From: a virus
Lineage: Duplodnaviria; Heunggongvirae; Uroviricota; Caudoviricetes
DNA length: 64,000 bases
Reading direction: 5' to 3' (one strand)
Virus record (IMG/VR): IMGVR_UViG_3300030029_000205
Shown: one piece after another, positions 15,584 through 44,458 of the stretch
How positions within the stretch are numbered: the first letter of the stretch is position 1
Layout of the letters: the number at the start of each line of letters is the position of its first letter
Made by a program: the position numbers and the translations under genes
Notes under the pieces: model-generated
The model's input: only the letters and a program-made list of their open reading frames with translations
Databases searched by the model: none
Told to the model about the DNA's origin: nothing

Positions 15584-15600
15584 TGATAAAACGGCAAGAA

Positions 15601-15631: not shown

Positions 15632-15673
15632 TTATATTTTATTGGTGTGCTTTTTGCAGGGGAGGTGGTGAGA

Positions 15674-16527: not shown

Positions 16528-16566
16528 AAGTCGGTAGATTTTTATGTAGTCTACCGACTTTCTTGT
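16528..16566 (+). terminator. stem-loop terminator (AAGTCGGTAGA...TCTACCGACTT + TTCTTGTG)
   Basis: 11-bp stem. Downstream T-rich but interrupted. Confidence 0.5.
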
Positions 16567-17222: not shown

Positions 17223-17251
17223 TTGTATTTTTGTAAGAAAAATGGTAAAAT
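17223..17251 (+). promoter_or_regulatory. promoter TTGTAT-N17(…TGG)-TAAAAT
   Basis: Same architecture as the others. About 90 nt upstream of the 17344 gene. Confidence 0.5.
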
Positions 17252-17343
17252 AATATACATAAATAAGATGTGATTAGGTTATATTTTCACAGAATTATAA
17301 ATAAGTTATTTAGATAGGTGAATTATTGCTTAGGAGTGATGAT

Positions 17344-24508: not shown

Positions 24509-24716
24509 TTTACATATTTTATATGTTGTTTTCTCACCTCCAAGATTTTATAGGGTTTTGTGGGGAAGATTAAATTCTTCCCTACAAAATAATAAAATTA
24601 TTTTAAGAAAGCATTTAAGTTTTGTTAGGTATATGTTAAAATGTAAATACAATATTCAAGTTATTGTATTTACATTTTAGTATATAGAATATTTTAAAAA
24701 TGTTTTAAGAATGACT

Positions 24717-24745
24717 TGTAGCTATACTTGAAATATGGTAAAATA
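24717..24745 (+). promoter_or_regulatory. promoter TTGTAG-N17(…TGG)-TAAAAT, copy 1 of tandem duplicated promoter
   Basis: Lies inside the first 115-bp repeat unit. Confidence 0.55.
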
Positions 24746-24830
24746 TGTATATACTTAGAAAGATACAATATTTAAACTATTGTATTGCATTTCAGTATAT
24801 GAGATATTTTAAAAATGTTTTAAGAATGAC

Positions 24831-24859
24831 TTGTAGTTAGTTTTAAAATATGGTAAAAT
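24831..24859 (+). promoter_or_regulatory. promoter TTGTAG-N17(…TGG)-TAAAAT, copy 2 of tandem duplicated promoter
   Basis: Lies inside the second repeat unit, about 40 nt upstream of the ORF-free RNA region. Confidence 0.55.
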
Positions 24860-24899
24860 ATGTATATACTTAGAACCTTGACAATTATAAATATTATAA

Positions 24900-25640
24900 G
24901 TGGCAGTAATACCTCAGTGAAGAGCGACTAATCATCGTGCTGAGAATATACTGAATGGAGTAACGGTATGTTGGGATACTTACATACTAAGACTTTACTA
25001 TACATCGAGAGGTGTAAGGTAGGAGTTTCAAAGCGAAACAACCAAGGGTATATGTGCTGTAAGTAATTTTTTCATAAGGTACTTTTAAGATGACGTAGAC
25101 ATAATAGACAGCCCAGTGGGTGTTGAATCAAGGTAGCTGACAAGTGTGAGAGCTTGGGTAGCGATGTGAAAACTCAAATAAGTCTAAATTTTGCAGTTGA
25201 AGCTCAGAAATGAGTGTATAAGTCATTGATAAAGGTATGAGTAGCCCAAATCTGCAAAGAACTGTAAAAGAAAAAAGGTTTAGTTAACCTAAGAACAATT
25301 TCTGAATGATGGGTGAAAATGAAGGGTATCAATCCCTTGTACTCAGTGTACCCTAAAGGGTAGGTGTAAGAAGTTTATATGTGACGATGTATAGGCTCAG
25401 ACTTACATCAGTACTGACTGATTAATGAACTGATTATATTATGGTATGCTGAATAAAAGGCAATTGCTGTTACTTATAATATTTATAATGGAGAGGGTAA
25501 TTCCAATGGGCAATCTAAGGGTGAGTTTTTGATAGTCTTATCTCGCCCCAGAAAGACTATCCGAATTGATTTCTAATACCTGTAATATAGCTATTAGAAT
25601 AGTTCGTTTTGTAAGCTCGGCTTATCCATAAGTCGAGCAG
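24900..25640 (+). ncRNA. candidate large structured non-coding RNA (ORF-free ~740 nt between tandem promoters and the tRNA array)
   Basis: No ORF of 60 aa or more on either strand from 24680 to 26028. Numerous local hairpins, e.g. a 10-bp stem at 25612-25636 and AAGGGTATCAATCCCTT. Lies directly downstream of duplicated strong promoters and upstream of tRNAs. Confidence 0.3.
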
Positions 25641-26284: not shown

Positions 26285-26372
26285 GCTGGTATGGTGGAAT
26301 AGGCAGACACAAGGGACTTAAAATCCCTCGGTCATTGCGACCGTATCGGTTCAAGTCCGATTACCAGCACCA
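26285..26372 (+). tRNA. tRNA-Leu (anticodon TAA), type II with long variable arm, CCA encoded
   Basis: Acceptor GCTGGTA/TACCAGC. Anticodon stem AGGGA/TCCCT with loop CTTAAAA. Variable arm CGGTC...GACCG. T-arm TCGGTTCAAGTCCGA. Discriminator A plus CCA. Confidence 0.85.
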
Positions 26373-26517: not shown

Positions 26518-26591
26518 GTAGATGTAGTTTAATGGTAAAATGTCAGTTTCCCATACTGAGGTTGTGGGTTCGATTCCCATCATCTGCTCCA
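26518..26591 (+). tRNA. tRNA-Gly (anticodon CCC), CCA encoded
   Basis: Acceptor GTAGATG/CATCTGC (one G-U). D-arm GTTTAATGGTAAAAT. Anticodon stem TCAGT/ACTGA with loop TTCCCAT. T-arm GTGGGTTCGATTCCCAT. Discriminator T plus CCA. Confidence 0.6.
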
Positions 26592-27078: not shown

Positions 27079-27152
27079 TGCAGAAAGTAGTTTAATGGTA
27101 GAATACCCGCCTAAGAGGAGGAAGATGCAGGTTCGACTCCTGTGTTCTGCAG
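27079..27152 (+). tRNA. tRNA-like gene, type and anticodon unresolved
   Basis: Acceptor TGCAGAA/TTCTGCA, 7 bp perfect. D-arm TAGTTTAATGGTAGAAT. T-arm GCAGGTTCGACTCCTGT. Anticodon stem pairs poorly in every register. Loop region contains CCTAAGAGG. Confidence 0.45.
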
Positions 27153-27403: not shown

Positions 27404-28852
27404 ATGCAAAGGTATAATTTTAGGGGTACAGCTATATGTGAAAGGTTGTTAAAGAGTTTTATAACATCTAATAGGAAGATTGTAGTATATTTTGACCCAG
27501 ATGTAGATGGGATGATAGCAGGGTATTTTGTATGTAAGTATTTAGCTATGTATGGTAAGCCTTTTAGTTGGTATGTAAATACCAATAGAAGTCATAATTG
27601 GGACTTAGATTTAGAAAAGGTAAAGGATTGTAATATTGTAGCTGTAGATTTTATGATACCTAAACAGGTAATGCAGGATATTGTAGATAATGGTGTAAAT
27701 ATTGTAAGTATGGACCATCATGTGAATGGTGATTCTTTTATACATATTATGTCTAAAGGTGAAGGGGTTATTATAAATAATCAGTATCCTTTTGAAGATA
27801 GAGAAAGAGCTTACTTATCAGGAGCAGGTGTAGTTTTTGAAACATTGTCTAATTTAGATGGTAATTTTTATACTGATGAGAATAAAGCTTTAGTAGGTTT
27901 AACCTTATTATCTGATGTCTGTAATATAGAAAACGCTTTAGCTAAAGAATATTTAACTACTCTGTACTATCATAAATACAAAGGGTACATAAGGTATTTA
28001 ATTGATGGTACTATGGGTGATAAGGATTGGGGTTTTGGTGTTCCAAGACTTGATAGAAAGTATGTTGAGTTTAAATTTTCCCCAGCTGTAAATGCTTGTT
28101 TACGCTTTAATAAAGAAACAGATGTTGTCAAGTTTTTTCTTTGTACTGCTAAGTTAGATTTAACTTACCGAGAAGAACAGAAAAAGCTTATAAAGAAGAT
28201 GCTTAAGATAGTAGAAGTACGAGAGTTTGAAAAGCTAAGGGTAGTTTTTCTTAATGATTGGGATAAGAGTGTTTCTTATTATAGTGATGTGCTGTCAAAT
28301 TTTATAGGTTTGATAGCATCTCGGTATCTTGATGGGAAAAAATCTGTATTAGCTTATTTAATAAGTAAAGATGTCTATGGCAAGAGGTATGTAAAAAGGG
28401 CAAGTTTTAGAGGTCATATAAACGGAGCAGATTACCTTAAGGAATCTAAGGGTATTATTGATGGCATAGGGCATCAATCTGCATTTGGTATATTAAATTT
28501 AAAACCAAGCAAGCAGTTATTTGAGAAAGTAAATATTGCGTGTAAAAAGGCTGAAGAAGGGTATATTAACGGCAATACGATAATACCTGTTACTAATTTG
28601 GCAATTTTTGCAGACAGAAAAGGTAGACGATGTGCTGAACATAATATGTACTGTTTGGCTCAGAATAATACATATGTAAGGTATATTGGTAGCAATGTAA
28701 AAGTAATATCAAATACTTCATCTTTTCAAAAGTATAAAGTAGATGGTATAGAAGTTAAATGCTTTGATTCTTCAATAGATTTTACTAATGGGGTAATATA
28801 TCCTATTCTGGAGAGAGGTTTTATTTATTATTACTTACAAAAAGAAAATTGA
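27404..28852 (+). CDS. DHH-family phosphoesterase (RecJ-like exonuclease / NrnA-like)
   Basis: DHH motifs: YFDPDVDGM (I), VAVDFMIP, VSMDHHVNGD (III). DHHA1-type GIGHQSAFG near the C-terminus. Confidence 0.8.
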   Translation: MQRYNFRGTAICERLLKSFITSNRKIVVYFDPDVDGMIAGYFVCKYLAMYGKPFSWYVNTNRSHNWDLDLEKVKDCNIVAVDFMIPKQVMQDIVDNGVNIVSMDHHVNGDSFIHIMSKGEGVIINNQYPFEDRERAYLSGAGVVFETLSNLDGNFYTDENKALVGLTLLSDVCNIENALAKEYLTTLYYHKYKGYIRYLIDGTMGDKDWGFGVPRLDRKYVEFKFSPAVNACLRFNKETDVVKFFLCTAKLDLTYREEQKKLIKKMLKIVEVREFEKLRVVFLNDWDKSVSYYSDVLSNFIGLIASRYLDGKKSVLAYLISKDVYGKRYVKRASFRGHINGADYLKESKGIIDGIGHQSAFGILNLKPSKQLFEKVNIACKKAEEGYINGNTIIPVTNLAIFADRKGRRCAEHNMYCLAQNNTYVRYIGSNVKVISNTSSFQKYKVDGIEVKCFDSSIDFTNGVIYPILERGFIYYYLQKEN

Positions 28853-28864
28853 TTTAAGAATAAC

Positions 28865-28893
28865 TTGAATAGATTTTTGATTTGTGGTAAAAT
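28865..28893 (+). promoter_or_regulatory. promoter TTGAAT-N17(…TGG)-TAAAAT
   Basis: Hexamers and spacing. Upstream of gene 28923. Confidence 0.5.
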
Positions 28894-28922: not shown

Positions 28923-29414
28923 ATGACTTTGGTAGATATTATTAAATCTTATAAGGATTCTAATGATTTCGGTAGTAAAAAAATGTTGCGTGAGTTAGAG
29001 GACTCTGTAAATAACTTAGGTTTTAATGCAAGTAATTGCGGTGAGGCTTTATACAATCAGTTCGGTGCAGATGAGGAAATAATTTGCTTTATCGATGGTT
29101 GGTGTAAGCTGTTGAAGAACAGACTTGGTGATGGCGATGATAGGTATCAGGACTCAGCCAGAAGATGTAAACTTTACTGCTATGTATCAGGGGGAAGTTC
29201 AAATCCCTATGCAGGGGGTGGAGATAACAAGGCAGGCAACATAAGAATGTTGCACCATACTCTGATTCAGAGATTATCTTCTGTATGGTTTAAGTACCTT
29301 GATATGTGTGGTAAAGATGCTAATCTACCTGAAAGATACTCTTACTTAAAAGGGGTAAGGGATGCTATGGTTGCTACTTTCGGTAGAGATTGGTATGATA
29401 TGTTTTATATTTAA
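28923..29414 (+). CDS. hypothetical protein
   Basis: RBS TAGGAGG. Promoter TTGAAT-N17-TAAAAT at 28865-28893. Confidence 0.7.
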   Translation: MTLVDIIKSYKDSNDFGSKKMLRELEDSVNNLGFNASNCGEALYNQFGADEEIICFIDGWCKLLKNRLGDGDDRYQDSARRCKLYCYVSGGSSNPYAGGGDNKAGNIRMLHHTLIQRLSSVWFKYLDMCGKDANLPERYSYLKGVRDAMVATFGRDWYDMFYI

Positions 29415-29446: not shown

Positions 29447-30598
29447 ATGATTACAGGAACAGCAAAACTGGTAGTTGACTTGGGTAATTCTGAAACCCGT
29501 GTTAAGACTATCTACGGAAAGACAGCAAAGGGTAATGTAAGAGAAAGGTTGAGTATTATTGATAACAGGTATAGTATTGTACCTGATGAAAAACTTGACC
29601 TTTACTTGAAAGGTGATACCTATTCAAGCGAAAGCTCTTATGTTTTTGAAAGAAATGGTATTTACTATTGCAATGGAGATGTTTGTAATATTGAGATGGC
29701 TCAGACTTCTTTCAGACCTACAGCTCTTGAAAAGAAGTATGAGTCTAAGGTTACTCTGTTTACGCTTATCAATGCATTCAGACAGGGTATTGAAGATGTT
29801 GCAATATTCTCAAATTGCGACAGTGATAATGTAGATGTAGATTGGGAGGTATATCTTCTTTTGCCACCAGAAGACCTTGAGGCAGGCTCTCAGGCTATTG
29901 CAAGTATGGTTAAGAGTATTGAAGATATTAACTTCTTAATGCCTGAGCTTTATAAGAAAATCAGCATCTCAAAGGTAAAGGTATTTCCAGAGGGTATGTG
30001 TGCTTTCTTCGGAGTTCTGTTCTCTTCAAAGGGTATTGTAAGAAAGGGATATGACTATCTTATGAATCCTGTAGAATCCACGGTAATATTTGATATCGGT
30101 GCAGGTACTACTGACATTGTTATGATTAGGGGTAGTCAGATTGTACAGAGTTCAAGATTTACTAAGGAAATCGGTGGTAACAATGTACATAGATTGGTAC
30201 AGAGAAGCCTCAGAAGCAAGGGTATTTCACTTCCAGATGAAGTAGTTCGTGAAGGAGTAAATACAGGTTATGTTAAGAGTGGTTCTCGTTCTATTGATAT
30301 CGCTGAAGAGATTGCATCTGCTAAGCAGGCGGTATCTAATCAGCTTGTAGACGCTGTACAGGAATTCTTTGAAAGTTCTATGATTAGTATTAGAACTATT
30401 TCAAATATTCTTGTATGCGGTGGCGGTGCTGAAGTATCTTCTAATAAGGAGATTAAGCCTATTTCTGATTATATTGTAAACTATATGAAGAGATTGTCGC
30501 CAGATATTAAGCTTGTAAAAATTCCAGAGGACGAAGAGGGTAATCCTGTTTCATCAAGATTGTTAAATATCAATGGAGCAGGTATTCTCGCAGAATAA
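29447..30598 (+). CDS. actin-like ATPase (ParM/StbA/Alp-family)
   Basis: Actin-fold motifs: LVVDLGNSETRVK (phosphate 1), IFDIGAGTTDIV (phosphate 2), ILVCGGGAEV (adenosine). RBS TAGGAGG. Confidence 0.8.
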   Translation: MITGTAKLVVDLGNSETRVKTIYGKTAKGNVRERLSIIDNRYSIVPDEKLDLYLKGDTYSSESSYVFERNGIYYCNGDVCNIEMAQTSFRPTALEKKYESKVTLFTLINAFRQGIEDVAIFSNCDSDNVDVDWEVYLLLPPEDLEAGSQAIASMVKSIEDINFLMPELYKKISISKVKVFPEGMCAFFGVLFSSKGIVRKGYDYLMNPVESTVIFDIGAGTTDIVMIRGSQIVQSSRFTKEIGGNNVHRLVQRSLRSKGISLPDEVVREGVNTGYVKSGSRSIDIAEEIASAKQAVSNQLVDAVQEFFESSMISIRTISNILVCGGGAEVSSNKEIKPISDYIVNYMKRLSPDIKLVKIPEDEEGNPVSSRLLNINGAGILAE

Positions 30599-30768
30599 GA
30601 GGAAAAGCTATTGATAAAGATGGGGATGACTCTTTCCTTACGGAAAACAGCATTGAGTTTTATCTTCCACGAAGCTCGTATTCAGATGTAGATGGTATTT
30701 CTCCTGATACTGTTGATGTAGCTTTTACAGGGTATAAGGATAAAACAAAAACGAAAGTAGAAGGTGTT

Positions 30769-31548
30769 GTGTCTGCGGTAAACAAGGATACAGGCACCTC
30801 CAAAGACTTTATAGTATCTTGTAGTATGAATAAGAATAACCAGTGGGTAGTCGACGGAGAGGAGTTCTACCATACAGATTTTTCTTTTATTACTGCGAGT
30901 GGTGTGACTATTGTTGCTAATGGTAAAGAAGTACCAGATAGTATGTTAGTTAGTAAAACAGGTGTAAACGATACTGAAAATGTATGCACTTTACCTTGTG
31001 TGGGTAAGGATGATATACATATTAAATTGTCTTGTGACAACTATACTTATGAAACTGATATTTCTCCAGCAATGAGCAATGGAGCAGAAAATGCTGATAT
31101 TGTACTAAGTCCATTATCTGATGAGGATAGAAAGGCTTGTGAGAATTTTATTAAGACTTCTTTCAATGCCATGTATTCTGATTACCTTGATGGTGCAAAA
31201 GCATCAGATTTTAACAAGTATATTTCATCAGATGCTGACCCTGATATCTGTAATCAAATTTTAGATGGTTTTAAATCTATGTCAAATAAGGGTTCATCTG
31301 GCAATTCTAATTTTAAGCTGTCCAAATGTATTGTTTCAGATAAAACAAATTGGGTATCTGGTGATTCAGTATATGTAGACTTTAAGTATCAGCTGGATTG
31401 GGTATATAATCTCGCTAAATGGAATCAGAATACTAAAAGATTAAGTAATATTCTTCTTAAAAAGGAAGATGGCGAGTTTAAGATTTATGGTTTAACTGAT
31501 TCAGGGTTATTTACTGAATGCAATAATTTCACACAGGAGTGGGAGTAA
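30769..31548 (+). CDS. hypothetical protein; reading frame is open and protein-like from 30544, so the true start is probably upstream and non-canonical
   Basis: First canonical start is GTG 30769 with a weak RBS. The same frame has no stop back to 30541 and encodes a plausible peptide (GKAIDKDGDDSFLTENSIEFYLPRSSYSDVDG...). Confidence 0.6.
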   Translation: MSAVNKDTGTSKDFIVSCSMNKNNQWVVDGEEFYHTDFSFITASGVTIVANGKEVPDSMLVSKTGVNDTENVCTLPCVGKDDIHIKLSCDNYTYETDISPAMSNGAENADIVLSPLSDEDRKACENFIKTSFNAMYSDYLDGAKASDFNKYISSDADPDICNQILDGFKSMSNKGSSGNSNFKLSKCIVSDKTNWVSGDSVYVDFKYQLDWVYNLAKWNQNTKRLSNILLKKEDGEFKIYGLTDSGLFTECNNFTQEWE

Positions 31549-31553
31549 GTTAA

Positions 31554-32450
31554 ATGAATTTGATATTGTTGATTATAGGAATTATTCTTGTTATATGTGC
31601 AGGTGCATTTTCCATAATTTCTTATAAAGAGGAAAGTGCGAAGCGTATTATCGGAGGTTTGCTGTTGATAGTTGGATTGGCTTTTGCAGTGGTATCTCAG
31701 AGTTTTGCAATTATTCCGACAGGGTACACAGGTGTAAAGACTACTTTTGGTCAGATAGATAATACTACTCTACAGAACGGTTTTAACTGGAAGACTCCTT
31801 TTATTCAGAGTATTGAGATGGTTGACAACAAACAGCAGGATATCTCATTTAACGATGATGAAATATGGAGTGAAACCAAAGAGAGAACAGCTATTTACTA
31901 TAAAGGGGTAACTGTTACATATCAAATTAATCCTGAAAAGTCCTCTTGGATTTATGCCAATATTTCTAATTATAAAGATAGTTTGGTAACAAAGCCTTTA
32001 GTTAGTTCTGCTATTAAGGCATCGAGTAAAGATTTATCCGATGTAGATGCTACTAATCGTTCTATTATTGAACCTAAAGCTTTAAAGAATATACAGGATA
32101 GTCTTAACGATAAGTATGGTAAAGATGTTATCTATGTAAATAAAGTAACCATTAATAATGCCGACTTTGAAGAGTCTTATAATAAGGCTATTGCTGATAA
32201 ACAAAAGGCTCAGCTTGCAGCAGAACAGCAGGAAATTGAGAATAACAAAGCTATTGCTAAGGCAAAGGCTGATGCTGAGGTAGCTGTAAAAGAGGCTCAG
32301 GGTAAAGCAGATGCCAATGAGATTTTGAGGAAATCTTTATCAGATGAGGTTCTTAGGGATAAGTACATTGAGAAATGGAATGGTCAGATGCCAAATGTAG
32401 TATCTGATGATAGTTCTGTTATGTATGGTATAGATTCATCAAGTAAATAA
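31554..32450 (+). CDS. SPFH/band-7 (prohibitin/HflK-like) membrane protein
   Basis: N-terminal TM IIGIILVICAGAFSII and a second hydrophobic segment. PTGYTGVKTTFGQ....LQNGFNWKTPFIQSIEMVD matches the SPFH core. C-terminal coiled coil AQLAAEQQEIENNKAIAKAKADAE. Confidence 0.8.
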   Translation: MNLILLIIGIILVICAGAFSIISYKEESAKRIIGGLLLIVGLAFAVVSQSFAIIPTGYTGVKTTFGQIDNTTLQNGFNWKTPFIQSIEMVDNKQQDISFNDDEIWSETKERTAIYYKGVTVTYQINPEKSSWIYANISNYKDSLVTKPLVSSAIKASSKDLSDVDATNRSIIEPKALKNIQDSLNDKYGKDVIYVNKVTINNADFEESYNKAIADKQKAQLAAEQQEIENNKAIAKAKADAEVAVKEAQGKADANEILRKSLSDEVLRDKYIEKWNGQMPNVVSDDSSVMYGIDSSSK

Positions 32451-32571
32451 TTTGGGTGAGGACTCACTGTAAATATGGTGAGTCCTCATACCCTATAAGG
32501 TATAATTATTAAAAGATTTATTAAGATGATTTAATAGGTGTTTTAATAATTATAGGTGGGAGGTTTTTCAT

Positions 32572-34524
32572 ATGCCTGTATTATCTGTATTATGTGCAGG
32601 GGTATCAACAACGGGTATAGAGTATATTACAGAGGCTGTAAATCAGGCTTTTGGTGAATGTTCTGTACAAGAGTTGCATAGAGATGATTTACGATTTAAA
32701 GTAAGATTGGGTACTAAAGATACATCTGTTGTATTGATTATATTAGATACTACTTCAATGGATGAGTGCAAGGATATTGAAAATGGTCTTTTTAGCTCAG
32801 ATAAGTTTTATAAATATGTGGGTGATGGGCAGTTAGTATCTTATCTCAATGAGAAATATGATTTAAATATGGATTTTGTTGTGGAAGATCTAACTTCCGT
32901 TACACCAGATGGTGTGTCAGCCTCAAATTGTGATGAAGAGGTTATTGAGAGGTATAGAAGTCAAATAGCTGATAAAGATGGTATTATTAAAAACTTAACT
33001 TGTACCGTTAAGGAATTAGAGGGTATTATCTCAGAAGGTGGCTATTCTGTAGATACTTCAAAGGTTGAAGGAGTAGAAGCTGAAAATCTTGAATTAAGAG
33101 GAAAAGTATTAGACTTACAAAAAGTTGTGGATACTGTTAATCAAGAGGTAGAAAACTATAAGAAAAATGACTCTGCTTTAAAAGATGAGAATGCTAAGCT
33201 CACAGATAAAATAGGTGTTCTACAGGTTAAGAATGAAGATGTTATTAAAACGCTTGCTACTGAGAGAGAGCTATCTTCTCAAAAGTCAGCTGTTATTCGT
33301 GATAAAGAAAAAGATATCTTAAAGCTACAAGAAGAATTAAAGGGTATCAGAGTTACAGAGATAAACATAAACAATTTTAAATCGGAAATCTCAGATTTAA
33401 AAAGTAGATGTAAGAATCTTCAATTAGAAAATAAAAATCTTATTATAGATTTAGATTCTAAAGATTCAGAAATTAAAAGATTAGGTTTAGACTTAGAAAA
33501 GCGTGGAGAGTATGATGAAAAGGTATCAGAATACAAAAAGATGTTAAGCACGCTTGAAAAAGAAAAGTCTGATTTAGCTAAAGAACTGAATGATGTTAAA
33601 AGTGATTATAATTCTTTAGTAACTCAGAATAACGAGTTGAACGAAGATTTAGATACATATTCAGATAAACTTACTGCTTTAGAAGAAAAATGTGCTGAAA
33701 CAGAAGGGTATTTATCTCAGGCAAATGTTGAAAAGATTAAATTGGAAGATAAACTCAAGGTTCTTGAGACTTCTACAAACAGAGATGCTGATGTAGAAGC
33801 AACCATAACCGAATTAAGTGAGTTAAAGAAAAAATATGCTGAGTTACAAACTAATATCTTTACTATCATAGGTACTAAGTCTTTACCTAAGTGTGGTATT
33901 AAAGCTCCGTTGATTAAGGGTATTCCATCTCATTATAGTAATGTGAAGTTTATATTTTCGGGTAGTTCTGAGAGTAGAAAAGGTACTTACAAATGCTTAT
34001 ATAATGAGTTAACAGGCTCTAAAGACAAGTATTTGATTTTAGATGTAACCTCTGAGACAGCTATTGATTATGTTTTCCAGATGAAGAAAATAGCTGATGG
34101 TATGAATTGGTTTACCTCAGGAGGGGGAGTACAGCAATATTTATCTTCTACTTGTTTACCTAATGTCAAGGTACTGATGCCAAAGATAGGGTATGTAAAT
34201 GATAGTTTTTTCTTAATGGTAAATTGGGAAAAACGCTTGAAAGAATTAGAAGAATCAGGTTATAAAGTAATAGTTTACTGCGGTGATATTTCTAATTTAG
34301 TTGGCAGGGTTTTATTAGAATCCTTTTCTGAATTAGGTGATACTCTTGTATATGTACATGGAAATGCACTTGGTTCAAGAACTATCATAGCAAATGCTTT
34401 TGGTTTAACAGGTATTAAATTGTGTACAGTGTTATATTATGATTTTGATAAGAGTATATTTAAATTTTACAAAATGATGGAAAGTAAAGCTAATTGTAAA
34501 ATTGTTTCTTATGCAAGGTCTTAA
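32572..34524 (+). CDS. 650-aa protein with ~300-aa central coiled coil and globular N- and C-terminal domains
   Basis: Heptad-rich region with repeated LK/LE/DL segments. RBS GGTGGGAGG. Confidence 0.75.
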   Translation: MPVLSVLCAGVSTTGIEYITEAVNQAFGECSVQELHRDDLRFKVRLGTKDTSVVLIILDTTSMDECKDIENGLFSSDKFYKYVGDGQLVSYLNEKYDLNMDFVVEDLTSVTPDGVSASNCDEEVIERYRSQIADKDGIIKNLTCTVKELEGIISEGGYSVDTSKVEGVEAENLELRGKVLDLQKVVDTVNQEVENYKKNDSALKDENAKLTDKIGVLQVKNEDVIKTLATERELSSQKSAVIRDKEKDILKLQEELKGIRVTEININNFKSEISDLKSRCKNLQLENKNLIIDLDSKDSEIKRLGLDLEKRGEYDEKVSEYKKMLSTLEKEKSDLAKELNDVKSDYNSLVTQNNELNEDLDTYSDKLTALEEKCAETEGYLSQANVEKIKLEDKLKVLETSTNRDADVEATITELSELKKKYAELQTNIFTIIGTKSLPKCGIKAPLIKGIPSHYSNVKFIFSGSSESRKGTYKCLYNELTGSKDKYLILDVTSETAIDYVFQMKKIADGMNWFTSGGGVQQYLSSTCLPNVKVLMPKIGYVNDSFFLMVNWEKRLKELEESGYKVIVYCGDISNLVGRVLLESFSELGDTLVYVHGNALGSRTIIANAFGLTGIKLCTVLYYDFDKSIFKFYKMMESKANCKIVSYARS

Positions 34525-34538
34525 ATAGGAGGTTGTGT

Positions 34539-35186
34539 ATGCGTAGAACAAGTATAATGTTAGAGTTCTCAGATGATATTTATGATTCTTTAGTAGAGCC
34601 TTTAAAAAAGAATAGAACATTTTCTAAATTAGTAGTATCTTTAATCAATGGGTACATAGAGGACGGGTATATTCATGCATATGTAGATGATACTTTAAGT
34701 AATCTTAAAAAGGCAGCTGTTGACTCTTTTAATAGTTCTATTGATTCTATGTCAGAGTCTTTAAGCAATATGGGATTGTTTACAGATGAACTAAATTCCG
34801 TATCTTCAAGTGCAAAAACTAAGTTTACTGAGAAGTATAACGAAGCATCAAAAGGGGTAAAGCCTGAAAGTAGAGTTGATAGCAAGGGTGATATTGATAA
34901 AATCAACAAGCGTATTGATGATATGCAAGAGGATGTTAATGCCAAGTTAAGCACTCTTATTGATTTAATTAGTTCTTTGTCAACGGGTGGTGTTCCTGTT
35001 AAGAAAAATGTGGAAAATGTTATTCCAGATGTTTCCAATGTTAAGAGAGATGTGGAAAATGTTATTCCAGATGTTTCCAATGTTAAGAGAGATGTGGAAA
35101 ATGTGGAAACCACTGATACCGAAGAGGAAAAAGAGGCTCTTGATTTTATGTCTAACCTGTTAAATGGTAACTCTTTTGAATTTTAA
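34539..35186 (+). CDS. coiled-coil protein with perfect 14-aa tandem repeats (VENVIPDVSNVKRD x2.3)
   Basis: ATG 34539, 7 nt after AGGAGG. DNA tandem repeat 35010-35105. Confidence 0.7.
   Translation: MRRTSIMLEFSDDIYDSLVEPLKKNRTFSKLVVSLINGYIEDGYIHAYVDDTLSNLKKAAVDSFNSSIDSMSESLSNMGLFTDELNSVSSSAKTKFTEKYNEASKGVKPESRVDSKGDIDKINKRIDDMQEDVNAKLSTLIDLISSLSTGGVPVKKNVENVIPDVSNVKRDVENVIPDVSNVKRDVENVETTDTEEEKEALDFMSNLLNGNSFEF
35010..35105 (+). repeat. in-frame 42-bp tandem repeat (2.3 copies) within CDS 34539-35186
   Basis: GTGGAAAATGTTATTCCAGATGTTTCCAATGTTAAGAGAGAT repeated exactly. Confidence 0.85.
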
Positions 35187-35207: not shown

Positions 35208-36791
35208 ATGGAAGATTTTAACTTAGAAGAGGTATTAAATTCTTCTGAAGATAGTAAAGAAGTAGTAAATACTAAAGAGCCCAAATCAAAAGGTAAAATA
35301 TCAGGTGGTAAGATTACTGCTTGCGTGTTCGTTGGTTTAGGGGTATGTTTTTTGATATTCTTGTTAGTTGGGGTATTATATACTAATTTTATAAGATTTC
35401 CTGCTCAAGAAGAAATAATCAAGGAGCAGACAGGTATTTATGCTTTAGAGAACTATGAGAAAAATGTACACGACCAGAAAAGTGTTTTTGATGGTAAAGA
35501 TTATTTAACAAAAGAGATTACTTATGCTAATTCAAATAAGCATAAGTTATCTTTTATATCTAAGATTGTTAATACAGTACATTATGAGTCCAAATCAGTT
35601 AGTGCTAAAAATATATTTGGTAATGATATGATTGATAGCAAAACATTGGAAGTAGTTGATATGACTTCCCCTGTTGAAGAAGGTGAAGAGGTTTTCTTTA
35701 CATATGTAAATTATAATGCTATTAATTTTGATGAGGAAACTTTAAAAAAGTTAATTAAGGATTATGATTTAACCGCAGACAATGTTGATTATGCTAACAT
35801 AGCTGTAGATATGTTTTGTGATTATATATCAGGTATGAAAACAATTCCTAAGATACAGGTATCAAGAGCTCCAAATATAAAAAAGACTGGTAATGCCTAT
35901 ACAGTATTACAAGATGAGGATACCTATTTAGACAGATTACTTTTTTCAAGCGATGCTTTTAAAAACTGTGAAATGCGATTTACTGTAGCATTAGGTAAGC
36001 TGTTATCTGATAAGGGTAGTTTTAAACCAACAGAAGAGTGGACTAAATGGGATAAGCTTGCAAAGATTGAAAAAGAGGAAACTCCTGAACCTGCAAAATA
36101 TGGTAAAATGACAATGGCATCCACTTGGGTGGGAGCTTACTATTTGCAAAATGAGTATTATACAACTGACGAGGATGGTAATAAGGCAAAAGATAAAGTA
36201 TCACCTCAGCTGGGCGATGGTAGTTTTGATAGTCCAGCAAGTATAGGTACACCAGTTATATCATATGTACTGTCAAAGGATAAGAAGGGTAATTTAATAA
36301 AGGACCCCATAAGGGTAGAAATGACAGAATATGGTTGCTCTGAAGATGCAATAACTTGGTTTCAAAGTAAAGATGTTCAAAACAGAGGTTTTACTCTTGA
36401 TTCTGAAGTGCAGTATTGTTACTATGTCTTTAAGGTGACTAACCTATCTAATAAGACTTTAGTGGTTAAAGATAATGCAAGTTTGTGTGATAAGAATGGT
36501 AATATTTCTACAAAAACAGGTAAAATTTTCGGTTTGGCTGAAAGTGTAGAATTAAAACCCGACGAGACAGGTATCATAGAATCTTGGGGTAGGTCAACAG
36601 AATTAAACTTAAAATATGTAATATGGGGTAAGGACTTTGAAAAACAGCAAGACCCAGTGTGGTTTAGGGTACTTGCAGGCAACAAAGAGGATAAGTCAGA
36701 AGATAAGGGTGTATATATCATTAACAGGAGACAGAAAGAAACTTCAGCTCCTAAAACAACGGTAGTTAATAGTACATCTTCTACGGAATAA
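35208..36791 (+). CDS. membrane-anchored (signal-anchor) protein, large extracytoplasmic domain
   Basis: RBS AAGGAGGG. TM ITACVFVGLGVCFLIFLLVGVLY after a K/E-rich N-terminus. Confidence 0.75.
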   Translation: MEDFNLEEVLNSSEDSKEVVNTKEPKSKGKISGGKITACVFVGLGVCFLIFLLVGVLYTNFIRFPAQEEIIKEQTGIYALENYEKNVHDQKSVFDGKDYLTKEITYANSNKHKLSFISKIVNTVHYESKSVSAKNIFGNDMIDSKTLEVVDMTSPVEEGEEVFFTYVNYNAINFDEETLKKLIKDYDLTADNVDYANIAVDMFCDYISGMKTIPKIQVSRAPNIKKTGNAYTVLQDEDTYLDRLLFSSDAFKNCEMRFTVALGKLLSDKGSFKPTEEWTKWDKLAKIEKEETPEPAKYGKMTMASTWVGAYYLQNEYYTTDEDGNKAKDKVSPQLGDGSFDSPASIGTPVISYVLSKDKKGNLIKDPIRVEMTEYGCSEDAITWFQSKDVQNRGFTLDSEVQYCYYVFKVTNLSNKTLVVKDNASLCDKNGNISTKTGKIFGLAESVELKPDETGIIESWGRSTELNLKYVIWGKDFEKQQDPVWFRVLAGNKEDKSEDKGVYIINRRQKETSAPKTTVVNSTSSTE

Positions 36792-36919
36792 GATTTATTT
36801 AATTATTTTTATGATAGTGATAGACATTTCATGGATTTTATGGTATAATAATACCATAGAATAAGGTTACCAAATTCAGACACCATTATCCATGTATCAG
36901 TTCTCCTATTCTATAAATT

Positions 36920-36957
36920 AACCGTTCTATCGAAAGATAGGACGGTTTTCTTTTTAT
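36920..36957 (+). terminator. intrinsic terminator (AACCGTTCTATC-gaaa-GATAGGACGGTT + TTCTTTTTAT)
   Basis: 12-bp stem with one G-U pair, GAAA tetraloop and T-tract. Confidence 0.75.
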
Positions 36958-38616: not shown

Positions 38617-40608
38617 ATGGAAAATTGGTTTTCTGATAAAATGTCAGAAGAAGTTCCATTTGAAGAAATTCAAGAGAAAGCTGACAATGGTGATTTTCAT
38701 CAGTGGAACTTTGAACCTTTTGAATTTCAGGAGAATGGCTATGAAGATGTACTTGATGAGATTAAGAAGTACACTGCTGTAGATTATCTTAAGCTTGACG
38801 AGGAAAGAAAAAAAGCTGAAAGTAGTGGAAATTCCGAAAAGGCAAAAGAGTACAAGGCTAAGATGGATAAAATGGTAGACGATGTGCTTGCAATTTACAG
38901 ACAGAAGAACATCTTTCCCATTCAGTATTTTTCAGAATTCGGTATTTTTGATGAGATTGAAAAATGCGTGGCATACAAAGCCTTTTGGAATGGAAATGTA
39001 GTAAGTTGTGGAGCAGGAGTGGGTACTACTCTTTGTAACTATCTTTTTCCTAATTTGTTTGATACTCCATCTCAGCACGATTTGGATAAAACAAATGCTC
39101 GTTCTCTTTATGAGAAATTCAACAATGATGATTTTCTCCGTAGAGCTATAAAGTTCTGTTTTAGTTATAAGAATGGTTGTCCAGTACCTACATCAGTTAT
39201 GGGTGGTTTAAGATTGGTAGGTAGTGCACCTACAAACTTTCGACCTATGAATGCTAAGGCAGTGTTTGAAAGGTTTTGTCCAGAGGGCGGAGTGATTTAT
39301 GATTTCTGTTGTGTATCTGGGGATACTGAGTTCTTTTGTGGCGATGGTTGGAAACCTATTAGTGAATATATGAAAGGCGACAAGGTTTTGCAGTATAATG
39401 AAGACGGAACTGCTAAAATGGTAGAACCAGAGGAGTACATTCATTATAAGAATAACGAGCCTTTTTATGAATACGAAAATGAAGAGTTTGCATCTTGTCT
39501 GACGGGTAATCATGATGTGGTTTATACACGATATGATGGCATACATAAAATCAAGCAGAGTGAGATATTAGACGGCTTTGATGGCGGGATTCCCATCACT
39601 TGTGAGTTTGGTTCAAAAGGGAGTGTTTATAGCTATGAAGATATGATTAGTATGGTTACTCACTTTGTAGCTATGTCTGAGAAAGATTCATCTCTTTACA
39701 AACAGTTTTGTAATGCTCTTTATTCTATGTCTTATGACGACAAGTGTTTTTTTATTGAGAAAGTTTTTCAGGGTAAAAATATATGGTTTACTGTAAATAA
39801 AAAGGCAGCTGATATTGTAAATACTCTTTGCAGAATGGTAGGGTGTTATTCTGTTATGAATAATGACCGTATTGCTGATGATATTTATTATGTAGAAAGG
39901 GATACTACTGGTTATAAGAATACTTCAAAGTATGAAGTAAATGAAAAGTACAGCTTTAAAAAGGTAGAACAGGAAGATAAATATTGTTTTGTTGTACCCA
40001 GTCATATGCTTGTGCTACGCTATAAGGGTAAAGTATTTATAACTGGTAATTGCGGTTTTGGTGGAAGAATGCTTGGAGCTCTTTCTTCTAAGAAGAATTT
40101 TAAGTATGTAGGAACTGACCCTTGTACTGAGACAATGTATCATCTGCATCAGCTTGGTGACTATATTGAGATGGTCACTGGTAGAGATGATTCATATGAA
40201 CTTCATTGTTGCGGTAGTGAGGTCTTTAAAGGACCAGAGAATAGCATTGACTTTGCTTTTAGTTCCCCACCGTACTTCAACCTTGAGGTGTATTCTGATG
40301 AAGAAACCCAGTGCTATAATAAGTTCCCAGAGCTTAATCAGTGGTTAGAGGGATATGTAAGAGAGACGATTAAAAATATTAAGCATATGCTGAAGAAGGG
40401 CAGATGTTATGCAGTAAATATTGCAGACTTTAAAGTTGGTGGAGGTAGTGAAGTAGCTTATGTAGATGAGTGGATTCGCATATCAACAGAAGAGGGTATG
40501 CCTTTATTTGATACAGTATATCTTGGTGTAACTGCAAGAGCAGGTAGTAAAGAGCAGGCAGCTGGAGAACTTAAGAAAGAAAATATTCTTATCTTTAAGA
40601 AAGTGTAA
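38617..40608 (+). CDS. DNA amino-methyltransferase (motif I DFCCGFGG, motif IV SPPY) interrupted by an intein
   Basis: Extein: ...VIYDFC | CGFGGRMLGA...FSSPPYFNLEV. Inserted Hint domain CVSGDTEF...GDKVL (block A), LTGNHDVV (block B), YCFVVPSHMLVL...FITGN followed by +1 Cys. Confidence 0.8.
   Translation: MENWFSDKMSEEVPFEEIQEKADNGDFHQWNFEPFEFQENGYEDVLDEIKKYTAVDYLKLDEERKKAESSGNSEKAKEYKAKMDKMVDDVLAIYRQKNIFPIQYFSEFGIFDEIEKCVAYKAFWNGNVVSCGAGVGTTLCNYLFPNLFDTPSQHDLDKTNARSLYEKFNNDDFLRRAIKFCFSYKNGCPVPTSVMGGLRLVGSAPTNFRPMNAKAVFERFCPEGGVIYDFCCVSGDTEFFCGDGWKPISEYMKGDKVLQYNEDGTAKMVEPEEYIHYKNNEPFYEYENEEFASCLTGNHDVVYTRYDGIHKIKQSEILDGFDGGIPITCEFGSKGSVYSYEDMISMVTHFVAMSEKDSSLYKQFCNALYSMSYDDKCFFIEKVFQGKNIWFTVNKKAADIVNTLCRMVGCYSVMNNDRIADDIYYVERDTTGYKNTSKYEVNEKYSFKKVEQEDKYCFVVPSHMLVLRYKGKVFITGNCGFGGRMLGALSSKKNFKYVGTDPCTETMYHLHQLGDYIEMVTGRDDSYELHCCGSEVFKGPENSIDFAFSSPPYFNLEVYSDEETQCYNKFPELNQWLEGYVRETIKNIKHMLKKGRCYAVNIADFKVGGGSEVAYVDEWIRISTEEGMPLFDTVYLGVTARAGSKEQAAGELKKENILIFKKV
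39310..40050 (+). mobile_element. intein (247 aa) inserted within methyltransferase motif I (FxGxG loop)
   Basis: Begins Cys (CVSGDTEFFCGDGW) and ends ..KVFITGN followed by Cys+1. The central ~140 aa may be a degenerate homing-endonuclease or linker domain. Penultimate residue is Gly, not His. Confidence 0.6.
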
Positions 40609-42784: not shown

Positions 42785-44458
42785 ATGGCAAATAGAAGGG
42801 AACATTTGAACAATGGTGACCTTGTATTAAACGGTAGGTATGAAATACTTAAATGTATTCATTCTAAAGGAATGGCTAATGTTTATCTTGTAAGAGATAC
42901 TCAATTAGGTAAACAATGGTGCTTAAAAGAGATTAGGTTATCTCAAGCAGGTAGGGAAAATATTGAGTATATAAGTCTTATGCAAGAGGCAAACATACTG
43001 CGTTCCTTAAATAATGAGAAGATACCAAGAATTACTACCATTGATAATGATGGTGACTCTTTGTTTGTGGTAATGGATTTCTTAGACGGTGTTACTCTAA
43101 AGGATTTTGTACAGGAGAAAGGCAGAATACCTGAAGAGCTGGCTGTTAAATGGATGATTCAGATAGTACAAGCCGTTGGGTATTTGCATAGTGAGAGGTC
43201 AAATAAGAAGCCTATCTTTTACAGGGATATGAAACCAGATAACTTAATGATTAGGTCAAATGGTGTAATAAATATATTCGATTTCGGTATTAGTGTTAGG
43301 ATAGAGAATCCTAATCAATTACCAGAATACACTCTGGGTACTCCAGGTTATGTTGCTCCAGAGCAGAAAAAGAAAAATTTACCTATGGATTTAAGGTCAG
43401 ATATCTATTCAATGGGAAGAACTTTTTATTTTATGTTGACAGGGGTAGACCCAAGGGGTTTCATAGGGGAGAAGTTAAAACCGATTAGTGATTGGAGTCC
43501 AGATGTTTCGCCAGTATTGATATCTATTGTCAATAAATGTATGGAAGAGAATCCTAACGATAGATATCAGAATTGTGAAGAGTTACAGTATGCTTTAGAG
43601 AATTACAAGTATTCTGATGAAAAACATCGTTCTTCCGCAAAGAGGAAGGTTAAGGTAGTAATTGGATTAGCCGTAGCAGGCATTACAATGGGTATCTTCA
43701 GTATAATTCCTTTTGGTATAAACGGAGCTCAGTCTAAAGATGCTTACAATAAAGCTTTAGTAGTTGCTCAGCAAAGTGGTAGATTAGAAGATTATGATAA
43801 GGTGCTTTCTATGAATCCACTAAGCATACCACCATATGAAGGGTATATAGATGCTATTAAGGAAGATGGTGTTTTTTCTTTAGATGAAGAAAAAGGTCTA
43901 TTAAATCATATAAATCCTAATTTAATAGACTTAAAAAATGATAAGGATTATGGTAAAATTGCTTTTGATATAGGTAAGCTATATTGGTTTTACTATCCAT
44001 CTGAAGATGGAAAAACCTTGTCTATAAAATGGTTTGATGATGCAATAAGCAGTGGTTTTAATAAGGAAGAGTCAACCGCTTATTACAAGTTAGGAGTGTT
44101 TAATAGAGATATTTCTAAATCTGTTAAAGAAGCAAGTGATAGCGGTATGTACAAGGATTATTGGGACAATCTGTTATCTATACAGAATATGGATACAAGT
44201 GATATAATTACTTTACAGACAAATATTTCTATTGCTGAGTGTATTTCAACATATGCATATAACTTAAAGAAAGATGGGGTATCTTATGAAGATATTTCAA
44301 AAGAATTGAAGTTATTAAATGGTTTTGTTAGCAGTTATAAGGTAGATAGTTCTACTTTAGATACTATTAAGTCCTTGTATGCTGAATTAAAATCTGATTT
44401 GGAGGGGTTAAGTGATAGGGTTGATGTGATTTATGGTAAAAGTGGAGGTGGTAATTGA
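42785..44458 (+). CDS. Hanks-type Ser/Thr protein kinase with transmembrane segment and extracytoplasmic C-terminal domain
   Basis: YEILKCIHSKGMANVY (G-loop), WCLKEI (Lys), YRDMKPDNLMI (catalytic loop), DFGIS, GTPGYVAPE. TM VVIGLAVAGITMGIFSIIPF, then ~270-aa domain. Confidence 0.85.
   Translation: MANRREHLNNGDLVLNGRYEILKCIHSKGMANVYLVRDTQLGKQWCLKEIRLSQAGRENIEYISLMQEANILRSLNNEKIPRITTIDNDGDSLFVVMDFLDGVTLKDFVQEKGRIPEELAVKWMIQIVQAVGYLHSERSNKKPIFYRDMKPDNLMIRSNGVINIFDFGISVRIENPNQLPEYTLGTPGYVAPEQKKKNLPMDLRSDIYSMGRTFYFMLTGVDPRGFIGEKLKPISDWSPDVSPVLISIVNKCMEENPNDRYQNCEELQYALENYKYSDEKHRSSAKRKVKVVIGLAVAGITMGIFSIIPFGINGAQSKDAYNKALVVAQQSGRLEDYDKVLSMNPLSIPPYEGYIDAIKEDGVFSLDEEKGLLNHINPNLIDLKNDKDYGKIAFDIGKLYWFYYPSEDGKTLSIKWFDDAISSGFNKEESTAYYKLGVFNRDISKSVKEASDSGMYKDYWDNLLSIQNMDTSDIITLQTNISIAECISTYAYNLKKDGVSYEDISKELKLLNGFVSSYKVDSSTLDTIKSLYAELKSDLEGLSDRVDVIYGKSGGGN

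Follow-up and report, generated by a model that had tools for sequence, protein, structure and literature searches.

A conserved four-gene cassette built on a ParM/Alp-type actin, a candidate DNA segregation or positioning system of a putative pXO16-like giant element

The locus described here lies in a 64,000-nt stretch of DNA, one strand of the IMG/VR virus record IMGVR_UViG_3300030029_000205 (hereafter the window), in which every plausible gene is on the + strand, the G+C content is 27–36%, and the GC skew stays at +0.2 to +0.45 throughout. A first-pass annotation, made from the letters and their open reading frames (ORFs), had marked positions 29447–35186 as an actin-like module of five tightly spaced genes encoding a ParM/Alp-type actin homologue, a protein with no canonical start, a prohibitin/HflK-like SPFH membrane protein, and two long coiled-coil proteins. 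All five ORFs were found on the + strand where they had been placed, as were the actin-fold motifs of the first product, the long coiled coil of the fourth, and the exact 14-aa tandem repeats of the fifth. Comparison with related loci nevertheless redrew the unit. Three of its genes were retained as part of a conserved four-gene cassette, the fourth member of which, a membrane protein gene, lies just outside the annotated block, whereas the start-less ORF and the SPFH gene appear to be cargo; the unit of study should therefore drop these two and add the gene at 35208–36791 (Table 1). The earlier account also lacked a ParA/MinD-fold domain in the 650-aa coiled-coil protein and the kinship of the locus with the Bacillus thuringiensis plasmid pXO16. 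All inferences below are computational.

The conserved unit was recognised in 13 related loci, referred to by L numbers, and runs from the actin gene to the coiled-coil protein gene, then to a gene for a tailed protein of ~215–310 aa, and finally to a gene for a single-pass membrane protein of ~525–690 aa. Neighbourhoods were compared by identity to the window actin: L079–L082 (99–100%), L004 (90%), L002/L003 (73%), L005 (61%), L006 (54%), L007 (46%), L008 (43%), and pXO16 (L001; 32%). The order is kept in the window and in all of these, as well as in the distant loci L074 and L078, and is kept in part in L075–L077, so that it persists down to actin identities of 32–34%, pXO16 included. Across the compared loci, the products measure ~385–430 aa (actin), ~580–660 aa (coiled-coil), 215–270 aa (adaptor-like), and 525–690 aa (membrane protein). 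The earlier view that this is not a plain ParM-plus-small-ParR cassette is borne out by this tight and deep linkage of the actin to the coiled-coil and repeat-bearing proteins. The opposite outcome, a block found nowhere else as a unit and an ordinary ParM beside an obvious parC/parR, was not what was observed.

Table 1. Features of the window, with the four core genes first, then the genes and repeat lying between core genes 1 and 2, and then other features in order of position
Feature	Position	Strand	Basis or description
Actin-fold (ParM/Alp-type) ATPase, core gene 1, presumed filament former	29447–30598	+	383 aa; motifs, Pfam, PHROG
Coiled-coil protein, core gene 2	32572–34524	+	650 aa; ~105-aa N-terminal domain, ~320-aa coiled coil, 211-aa C-terminal domain
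Predicted ParA/MinD-fold domain, C-terminal 211 aa of core gene 2 product	33889–34521	+	AlphaFold2 and Foldseek
Adaptor candidate, core gene 3	34539–35186	+	215 aa; N-terminal region, repeat linker, acidic stretch, C-terminal peptide LDFMSNLLNGNSFEF
Predicted single-pass membrane protein, core gene 4	35208–36791	+	527 aa; hydropathy; transmembrane segment 39–57
Lipoprotein-gene remnant (start-less ORF), apparent variable cargo	30573–31548	+	DNA alignment with L081 and L079
SPFH/Band-7 membrane protein, intact, apparent variable cargo	31554–32450	+	Two N-terminal hydrophobic segments, C-terminal coiled coil
Perfect 11-bp inverted repeat, 10-nt loop, no T-run	32457–32488	+	Between SPFH and 650-aa genes; sequence reading
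Gene with tandem coding repeats	4811–6016	+	Repeats of 165–174 nt (~1.8 and 2.5 copies), matching phage T4 Gp30.7 domain family
1464-aa protein	11189–15583	+	Sole plasmid homologue a 1440-aa hypothetical protein of pXO16; 27% identity, E 2e-50
Region without ORF of at least 100 aa	16320–17326		~1 kb; in lowest-G+C 2-kb bin (27%); negative AT skew
115-bp tandem duplication	24630–24875		2 copies, 88% matches; promoter-like TTGACTT...TGGTAAAAT in each
ROOL RNA, full length	24889–25481	+	Rfam RF03087; 252 bits (gathering 99.1), E 3e-56, model 1–574 of 574
tRNA-Leu (TAA)	26285–26372	+	
tRNA-Gly (CCC)	26518–26591	+	
tRNA-Leu (AAG)	27079–27152	+	
RecJ-like DHH phosphoesterase	27404–28852	+	Pfam DHH 35.6 bits (cutoff 28.1); PHROG 2484 RecJ-like, 1.1e-22
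Promoter-like site	28865–28893	+	TTGAAT-17-TAAAAT, extended –10 TG; consensus scan
163-aa protein preceding actin gene	28923–29414	+	34% identical to 167-aa L002 protein, E 4e-24
Small transcription unit, candidate small RNA	36821–36955	+	Promoter TAGACA-17-TGGTATAAT (36821–36849); intrinsic terminator (36920–36947), then T-run
663-aa ORF	38617–40608	+	DNA-methyltransferase families match residues ~535–636
Ser/Thr protein kinase	42785–44458	+	PHROG 2361, 1.5e-44
2044-aa protein	44871–51005	+	Bacterial Ig-like domain the sole match
Anti-restriction-type protein	52107–53165	+	PHROG 7245, 6.7e-32

The product of core gene 1 contains the motifs DLGNSETR, DIGAGTTD, and CGGGA. Across 29 aligned members of the family, D11, G13, N14, S15, and T17, then D216, G218, A219, G220, T221, and D223, and finally G325–327 are invariant, as is E182 of the PEG motif; it is on the phosphate-1, phosphate-2, and adenosine motifs together with the catalytic acidic residue that the assignment to the actin fold rests. 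The protein scored 57.5 bits against Pfam MreB-like_C (cutoff 27.8) and matched PHROG 691, annotated as "partition protein", at 1.5e-25. The best match of the family profile among solved structures was ParM of B. thuringiensis (4xhp, 1.5e-10), with pSK41 ParM, MamK, and pCBH ParM also returned, and 341 homologues were found, on contigs of up to 236 kb. Scores fell below the NCBIfam cutoffs for ParM PRK13917 (37 bits versus 417), BeeR (39.6 versus 530), and MamK (31.4 versus 400), and below the Pfam cutoffs for ParM_N, Alp7A_like_C, and ALP_N. Judged by its sequence, the protein appears to be a member of the ParM/Alp radiation lying outside every curated family threshold. Patterns drawn from the actin alignment were also used to scan genome contigs; these proved to be generic actin motifs, and the matches listed were unrelated MamK/ParM-like genes from Planctomycetota and others, with no close relative among them.

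The 650-aa protein encoded by core gene 2 has 47 full-length homologues. Residues ~115–435 are proline-free and 38% charged and match SMC-type coiled-coil models; PADLOC matches to LmuB and JetC were confined to this coiled coil and were dismissed. No Pfam family was found over either globular end. AlphaFold2 modelled the last 211 residues with a predicted local distance difference test score (pLDDT) of 91.8, and a Foldseek search of this model against the PDB returned FleN, FlhG, ParA2, and MinD, with E-values down to 6e-8 and a TM-score of 0.66. The C-terminal domain is predicted from this model to have the ParA/MinD α/β fold. Its Walker A site is degenerate, with the family consensus FxFSGSxESRKGT placing SxESRKGT where ParA and MinD proteins have KGGxGK[ST]. 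Within this stretch Glu, Ser, and Gly are invariant and Lys occurs in ≥90% of members, while other residues take the place of the P-loop glycines, and Gly that of the Thr/Ser following Lys. The pXO16 homologue reads PLSNLTVIDT at the same site, so that Lys is gone as well. Neither KGGxGK[ST] nor GxxxxGK[ST] occurs in the C-terminal domain, and none of 28 members matched the ParA/MinD-type Pfam families CbiA, AAA_31, ParA, and MinD, even at E 10.

An exhaustive profile search of 1.84 billion representatives placed this domain in a closed set of 245 clusters. Among the 150 of these matches that were listed, it is nearly always found at the C terminus of proteins of ~450–1250 aa, the few shorter ones look like fragments, and no ordinary full-length protein of ParA size is present. 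The domain is probably a non-catalytic docking or dimerisation module. At the other end of the protein, the N-terminal ~105 aa have a conserved α/β pattern, in which ~100 residues of β-α repeats include an invariant Asp that ends a hydrophobic strand. This domain gave no sequence signal in Pfam or the PDB, and it is also recognisable in a 1020-aa member of the family (hhalign probability 76%, E 2.3e-5). Similarity to the pXO16 counterpart extends over the coiled coil and C-terminal domain (E 4e-12), and an alignment from the N terminus gave E 7e-4. We infer a family with two conserved end domains joined by a coiled coil of variable length, as would be expected of a tether or spacer.

For the 215-aa protein of core gene 3, the ATG at 34539 (MRRTS..., conserved in homologues) is a likelier start than the TTG at 34533. 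The sequence VENVIPDVSNVKRD occurs in it twice exactly, followed by a partial third copy, and the underlying DNA repeat at 34997–35122 (42-nt period, 2.6 copies, 96% matches) encodes VKKxVENV linker repeats. Its 54 homologues share an N-terminal region of ~95 aa, an acidic stretch, and the C-terminal peptide DFMSxMLxGNSFEF, and vary in the length of the linker, which holds from one to five VKKxVENV-type motifs. When 16 N-terminal segments were compared with Pfam VAPB_antitox, a family that we take to consist of CopG-type ribbon-helix-helix (RHH) antitoxins, 12 gave sub-threshold matches (14–22.5 bits versus 27.9; best E 2e-4), with residues 8–42 of the protein aligned to profile positions 3–37. 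Against the PDB, profiles of the full protein and of its N terminus gave coiled-coil noise only, and a 269-aa protein of pXO16 was aligned to it with an hhalign probability of 75% (E 2.4e-5).

Proteins of the ParR type consist of an RHH DNA-binding head, a flexible linker, and a C-terminal filament-binding peptide. Because its candidate head, linker, and terminal peptide follow this layout, the 215-aa protein is proposed, with moderate confidence, as a ParR analogue and putative DNA-binding adaptor. The first-pass annotation had held that the genes after the actin stand in place of a ParR-like adaptor, which is probably wrong, as the fourth of them is laid out like an enlarged protein of that type (weak RHH signal, linker, and C-terminal peptide).

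Core gene 4 encodes a predicted membrane protein with an acidic cytoplasmic tail of ~38 aa (MEDFNLEEVLN...) and an extracytoplasmic domain of ~470 aa. It is homologous to a 691-aa protein of pXO16 (E 2e-36) and to a 574-aa protein of L078 (E 3e-37), the latter colinear with it through the transmembrane segment, and had no match in the PDB, Pfam, NCBIfam, or PADLOC. The tail loosely resembles the terminal peptide of the adaptor candidate, and it is possible, although speculative, that the two share a docking site.

Gene content between core genes 1 and 2 differs among the relatives. Nothing lies there in L005, L006, and L008, and L007 has one 45-aa ORF; L004 has an SPFH gene alone, the window clade has a lipoprotein gene and the SPFH gene, and L002 has a lipoprotein gene, an SPFH gene, and a 177-aa gene. 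Because of this variation, the slot appears to be an insertion site for cargo. The start-less ORF of the window is, as had been noted, a real open frame, open in frame 1 from 30598 to 31548 (316 codons) without a start. In L081, which encodes an identical actin protein, the distance from the actin gene to the SPFH gene is 1179 nt versus 955 nt in the window, and alignment of the window with L081 and L079 DNA revealed a clean 224-bp deletion with its junction at ~30600–30606, just 3′ of the actin stop codon. The intact L081 gene product is a lipoprotein precursor with MKKVVKFMVIAFVLVGVMMGMLSGC, a signal peptide with a lipobox. The deletion, the length of which is not a multiple of three, took the start ATG and the signal peptide together with some 45 more codons, and explains the missing start. 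The purine-rich AAGAGGAAAA once served the lipoprotein gene as its ribosome-binding site and survives just upstream of the junction. An alternative ATT start at 30610 after AAGAGGAAAA and a programmed frameshift had both been considered and were rejected once the deletion was seen. Having been seen in one sequence, the deletion may be biological or an assembly artefact. In L079, L080, and L082 the lipoprotein gene is split by a nonsense mutation into two ORFs (54–68 aa and 324 aa), and L004 is without it. The gene appears from these sequences to be decaying and not to be part of the apparatus.

The SPFH protein scored 74.3 bits against Pfam Band_7 (cutoff 23.6; 1.6e-20) and matched PHROG 200 at 6.7e-49, and the two hydrophobic segments in its hydropathy profile provide a membrane anchor. 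The identification as an SPFH membrane protein therefore stands, but it is not an HflK equivalog, with an HflK-like match (1.6e-10) of 40.9 bits versus a cutoff of 159.4. Only the closest group has an SPFH gene in the slot between core genes 1 and 2, namely the window, L002/L003, L004 (78% identical), and L079–L082. In L005–L008 none was found within ±10 kb of the cassette, and the ~19 kb covered at the pXO16 module contained none either. PADLOC assigned the SPFH and lipoprotein cargo to no defence system. The inverted repeat that follows the SPFH gene was not called by the terminator scan; it may act in transcript processing or attenuation and mark the end of the insert.

If all five genes of the original block, the start-less ORF and SPFH gene included, formed one obligatory cytoskeleton-plus-membrane-scaffold apparatus, their tight spacing and shared orientation, the intact state of the SPFH gene and its 78% conservation in L004, and the presence of an SPFH/flotillin gene near the cassette in L074 would be explained. 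Such an arrangement is scarcely credible, however, with one of the five a deletion remnant that is nonsense-mutated or absent in sister genomes and with all four core genes kept in L005–L008 (±10 kb) and pXO16 (~19 kb covered), where no SPFH gene was found. Since relatives without them keep the core genes, the SPFH and truncated lipoprotein genes are best read as dispensable, lineage-specific cargo and not as machine parts.

Distant members of the coiled-coil family were examined at six loci. In the four with upstream DNA (L074, L075, L077, and L078), an actin-like gene is directly upstream of the coiled-coil gene. The L074 actin is 34% identical to that of the window over its full length (E 1e-70), and those of L075 and L077 gave weak or faint PilM_2 matches. 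Downstream lies a gene for a 257–310-aa protein with the layout of the 215-aa protein, followed by the membrane protein homologue (the 574-aa protein in L078). A T2SSE ATPase is encoded upstream of the cassette in L074 and L078, and in L074, the one of this pair scanned with Pfam, neighbours include a weak T2SSF-like protein (E 0.0048) and a prepilin-type N_methyl protein (5.8e-8). The flanks with secretion-type genes are 1–2743 and 14980–18727 of L074 and 1–2349 of L078; L074 also has a gene for a 554-aa Band_7/flotillin-type SPFH protein near the cassette. Because the distant clade keeps the cassette amid different neighbours, the four genes appear to form a portable unit present in at least two genomic settings.

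It could be argued that the four genes are linked by synteny and not by function, with the actin acting alone or with an adaptor encoded elsewhere; interactions among the products are proposed here, and two of them belong to no recognisable family. Adjacency and order persist, however, to 32–34% actin identity and across three different genomic contexts, and the coiled-coil/ParA-like family seems to occur only in pairing with the actin, all of which makes chance neighbourhood very improbable.

The surroundings of the distant cassettes suggest another role, that of a membrane-anchored scaffold which places an envelope-spanning machine (conjugative or Tad/type IV-filament-like), with the coiled-coil protein acting in the manner of TadZ/CpaE and the membrane protein as the link to the envelope. 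The strict conservation of a single-pass protein with a large extracytoplasmic domain, the T2SSE ATPases flanking the cassette in L074 and L078 with the weak T2SSF-like and N_methyl proteins of L074, and the recurrence of an SPFH/flotillin gene near the cassette in two unrelated positions (window clade and L074) are all in keeping with such a scaffold, as is the fact that pXO16 is conjugative while its relaxase and oriT are still unidentified (PMC9673590). Yet the T2SSF match is below threshold, neither a prepilin motif nor a T2SSE-type gene was found among the window ORFs tested, and the neighbours in the window clade and pXO16 are RecJ-like, UvrD, HU, and SSB genes. The RHH-like head of the adaptor candidate moreover points to DNA, and for the N-terminal domain the TadZ analogy is one of sequence pattern. 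A scaffold for an envelope machine is considered unlikely, although it is the strongest of the alternatives to segregation.

To place the element that carries the cassette, the window was compared with plasmid and phage records. An identical actin protein is also encoded on metagenomic contigs of 185–205 kb, and IMG/VR includes a 140-kb contig (L004) with an actin of 90% identity. Among 72,556 plasmids, full-length matches to the window actin were found only in ten copies of a ~350-kb B. thuringiensis plasmid, at 32% identity. One of these, NC_018516 (pBTHD789-1), is pXO16, a 350-kb plasmid of B. thuringiensis sv. israelensis that is highly coding, has few database homologues, carries all its coding sequences in one orientation, and is conjugative despite an organisation that its reviewers considered phage-like (PMC6199540). 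Large plasmids of this serovar are estimated at <3 copies per cell, and no plaques are known for pXO16 (PMC6199540). Beyond the actin, pXO16 homologues were found for three more window proteins, the RecJ-like DHH protein, the 527-aa membrane protein, and the 1464-aa protein, and the latter two match pXO16 alone among the plasmids. The pXO16 module was also the only plasmid record with the block of RecJ-like, actin, coiled-coil, adaptor-like, and membrane protein genes. Its ParM/StbA gene has the protein accession WP_000409536, and those of the next three genes are WP_000420482, WP_000024401, and WP_000841051. The 1464-aa protein had no match in Pfam or PHROGs.

No match was found in 50,697 phage records for positions 27–37 kb (megablast) or for the actin and membrane proteins (tblastn), and a scan of 40 window ORFs with PHROGs and/or Pfam revealed no virion or packaging gene, the only matches of that kind being Ig-like domains. 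Recoded stop codons were considered and rejected, all large ORFs being open under table 11. Because of these negative results, and because genes and a one-strand layout are shared with pXO16, including the synteny of five genes and the 1464-aa protein, the window is treated as part of a pXO16-like giant extrachromosomal element of ~185–205 kb, of which (taken as ~190 kb) it covers 64 kb.

The same comparisons bear on whether the cassette might serve lytic or replicative DNA handling by a phage-like element, in which replicating genomes would be brought to a site at the membrane by an actin filament, much as described for AlpC/AlpA. IMG/VR classes the 90%-identical contig as viral, the cassette is preceded at 2–5 kb by a full-length ROOL RNA and three tRNA genes, replication genes surround it, and pXO16 was considered phage-like in organisation (PMC6199540). 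Set against these are the lack of a structural or packaging gene in the 40 ORFs scanned, the absence of the region, the actin, and the membrane protein from the phage records, and the absence of known plaques for pXO16 (PMC6199540), and we regard this explanation as quite improbable.

Both the window clade and pXO16 have a RecJ-like gene ahead of the cassette; the distant clade does not. The window protein aligns over its full length with the product of the pXO16 gene directly upstream of ParM (E 3e-72, 32% identity) and has no homology to that of the gene at the corresponding place in L074. UvrD, HU, and SSB genes complete the replication and repair neighbours in the window clade and pXO16. 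The 163-aa protein encoded next to the actin gene occurs only in closer relatives, is absent before the actin gene in L006–L008, and belongs to no family in Pfam, PHROGs, NCBIfam, or PADLOC. After the promoter-like site upstream of it, the first T-tailed terminator called on the + strand is at 36920, and it is plausible that this promoter-like site is the start of an operon running from ~28.9 to ~36.8 kb.

Directly 3′ of the membrane protein gene is a conserved small transcription unit, with a strong promoter and an intrinsic terminator, that is also present in L002 (~18140–18265), L005 (~15510–15640), L004, L007, and L008. Its transcript would be ~70–100 nt long and contains a shared CU-rich GTTCTCCT motif that is anti-Shine-Dalgarno-like. 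The unit is a candidate small RNA and had no Rfam match at the gathering threshold.

Upstream of the cassette, the sole non-coding repeat cluster of the window lies at 24.5–24.9 kb, directly upstream of the ROOL RNA and 4.6 kb from the cassette. It contains the 115-bp duplication and four copies of the palindromic half-site ATACAATA/TATTGTAT, and could be an operator or a centromere-like site. The ROOL RNA itself is 4 kb upstream of the cassette, just before the three tRNA genes. TTAGRTTGT, a candidate centromere motif derived from the L002 and window upstream regions, was not enriched (27 matches versus 21.7 expected). Elsewhere in the window, the region at 16320–17326 holds a hairpin (16531–16566) and short 7- and 10-nt tandem repeats, and could be a replication origin or a regulatory region. 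The middle of the 663-aa ORF (…DFCCVSGDTEF… to …FITGNCGFGG) was read by eye as a putative intein/Hint insertion. In addition to the kinase gene of the window, the equivalent downstream region of L005 (19097–21161) encodes an FHA protein, a PP2C phosphatase, and a kinase, which suggests an element-encoded phospho-signalling module.

Taken together, the cassette may be an expanded, membrane-anchored, actin-type system for segregating or positioning the DNA of a very large low-copy replicon, the best-supported reading and one to which we assign about even credence. Polymerisation, DNA binding, the map of interactions, and the segregation function are proposed here from gene content, conservation, folds, and motif states. 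The ParM/Alp-type actin would polymerise using ATP. The adaptor would bind element DNA through its RHH head and, by means of a flexible multivalent linker and its C-terminal peptide, would couple that DNA to the filament as ParR does. The coiled-coil protein would join its conserved N-terminal domain to a ParA/MinD-fold domain without a canonical P-loop, and the membrane protein would anchor the assembly through its short acidic cytoplasmic tail. Together the four proteins would segregate or position copies of the replicon. With the large plasmids of B. thuringiensis sv. israelensis estimated at <3 copies per cell, a need for active partition is to be expected of such an element; that no second partition locus was recognised within the 64 kb, and that the nearest solved relatives of the actin are plasmid ParMs, were also counted in favour of segregation.

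Several observations weigh against a segregation system. The RHH assignment of the adaptor rests on the sub-threshold matches (14–22.5 bits versus 27.9), the window's own copy has no VAPB_antitox match, and the AlphaFold2 monomer model of the 215-aa protein is poor (pLDDT 52.6). Repeat searches, Tandem Repeats Finder, and k-mer clusters revealed no non-coding parC-like repeat array at 27–37 kb. To our knowledge, neither a coiled-coil nor a membrane protein is required in the type II systems described so far, which leaves two of the four genes without a canonical role. The cassette of the distant clade is found amid type IV-filament-like genes (T2SSE, weak T2SSF, prepilin-type) and not amid replication genes, and another par system may be encoded elsewhere on the ~190-kb element, of which 64 kb were seen.

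Beyond segregation as such, the cassette might represent an unrecognised kind of cytoskeletal apparatus, in which an actin, a coiled-coil tether with a pseudo-ParA/MinD cap, a transmembrane anchor, and a DNA adaptor move or hold the DNA of a giant pXO16-like replicon relative to the envelope. This is a tentative and somewhat doubtful proposal. If true, the apparatus would combine partition parts of type II (actin) with others derived from type I (ParA-fold), would work through an undescribed mechanism, and would serve segregation and possibly transfer too.

No description of the combination of actin, coiled-coil/ParA, adaptor, and membrane protein genes was found in the searchable literature, and two reviews that treat pXO16 mention neither the cassette genes nor how the plasmid is maintained (PMC6199540, PMC9673590). 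Very large low-copy plasmids and phage-like elements face a hard segregation problem, and pXO16, the only cultured relative found, replicates and conjugates in the genetically tractable B. thuringiensis. The known repertoire of bacterial cytoskeletal systems would be widened by a cassette in which an actin motor is combined with a degenerate ParA-fold coiled-coil protein and a membrane anchor, and such a cassette would exemplify the conversion of a ParA-type ATPase domain to structural use.

Among the closest known systems, pXO16 differs from the window element in being nearly twice its size, with proteins 21–33% identical to those of the window, a coiled-coil protein without the residual Walker A lysine, and no SPFH insert in the ~19 kb examined. 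The TadZ/CpaE-type localisation factors (solved example 3fkq), in which a receiver-like domain is joined to an atypical ParA/MinD domain, resemble the 650-aa protein in the ParA/MinD fold with an atypical nucleotide site; the ~100 N-terminal residues of the window protein are β-α patterned and include an invariant Asp, and distant cassette members lie near a T2SSE ATPase. Unlike TadZ/CpaE, the window family has a coiled coil of 320 to ~800 aa between the two domains and no sequence-level link to any ParA, MinD, or CpaE family.

In CorMR of Anabaena, a chromosomal ParMR system has been repurposed as a cell-shape cytoskeleton (bioRxiv 10.1101/2025.06.27.661541). This provides a precedent for a ParM-type role beyond plasmid segregation, and CorM is a weak PDB match of the window actin (9rmi, E 0.018); CorMR differs, however, in comprising ParM and ParR only, in being chromosomal, and in being remotely related. 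The actin-like ATPases of PilM-PilN, FtsA-FtsN, and MreB-RodZ are paired with single-pass membrane partners, and here too the actin gene is accompanied by one for a single-pass membrane protein, the N-terminal tail of which is short and cytoplasmic. The window actin nonetheless has no significant PilM similarity, and its membrane protein and the rest of the cassette are unlike those systems. AlpC/AlpA of the Corynebacterium glutamicum prophage CGP3 combines an actin-like protein with an adaptor that joins element DNA to the filament, and appears to be connected with replication near the membrane. As far as general descriptions allow a comparison, it shares with the cassette an actin-like protein and a DNA adaptor on a large mobile element, whereas it is a two-gene system without a coiled-coil/ParA-fold protein or a membrane protein.

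The ParMRC systems of R1, pSK41, and the B. thuringiensis plasmid pBMB67 are similar to the window locus in that the nucleotide motifs of its actin are intact, the nearest solved structures being BtParM, pSK41 ParM, and pCBH ParM, and in that a downstream protein has a weak RHH-like head and a conserved C-terminal peptide. They differ in that the window actin reaches 37 bits versus the ParM cutoff of 417, no parC repeats were found beside the cassette, and ParR is about half as large as the adaptor candidate, the gene for which is separated from that for the actin; the coiled-coil/ParA-fold and membrane protein genes have no ParMRC counterpart. Because there is no recognisable parC and two conserved genes are without counterparts, the locus is not to be filed as a member of ParMRC, although it may work partly like one.

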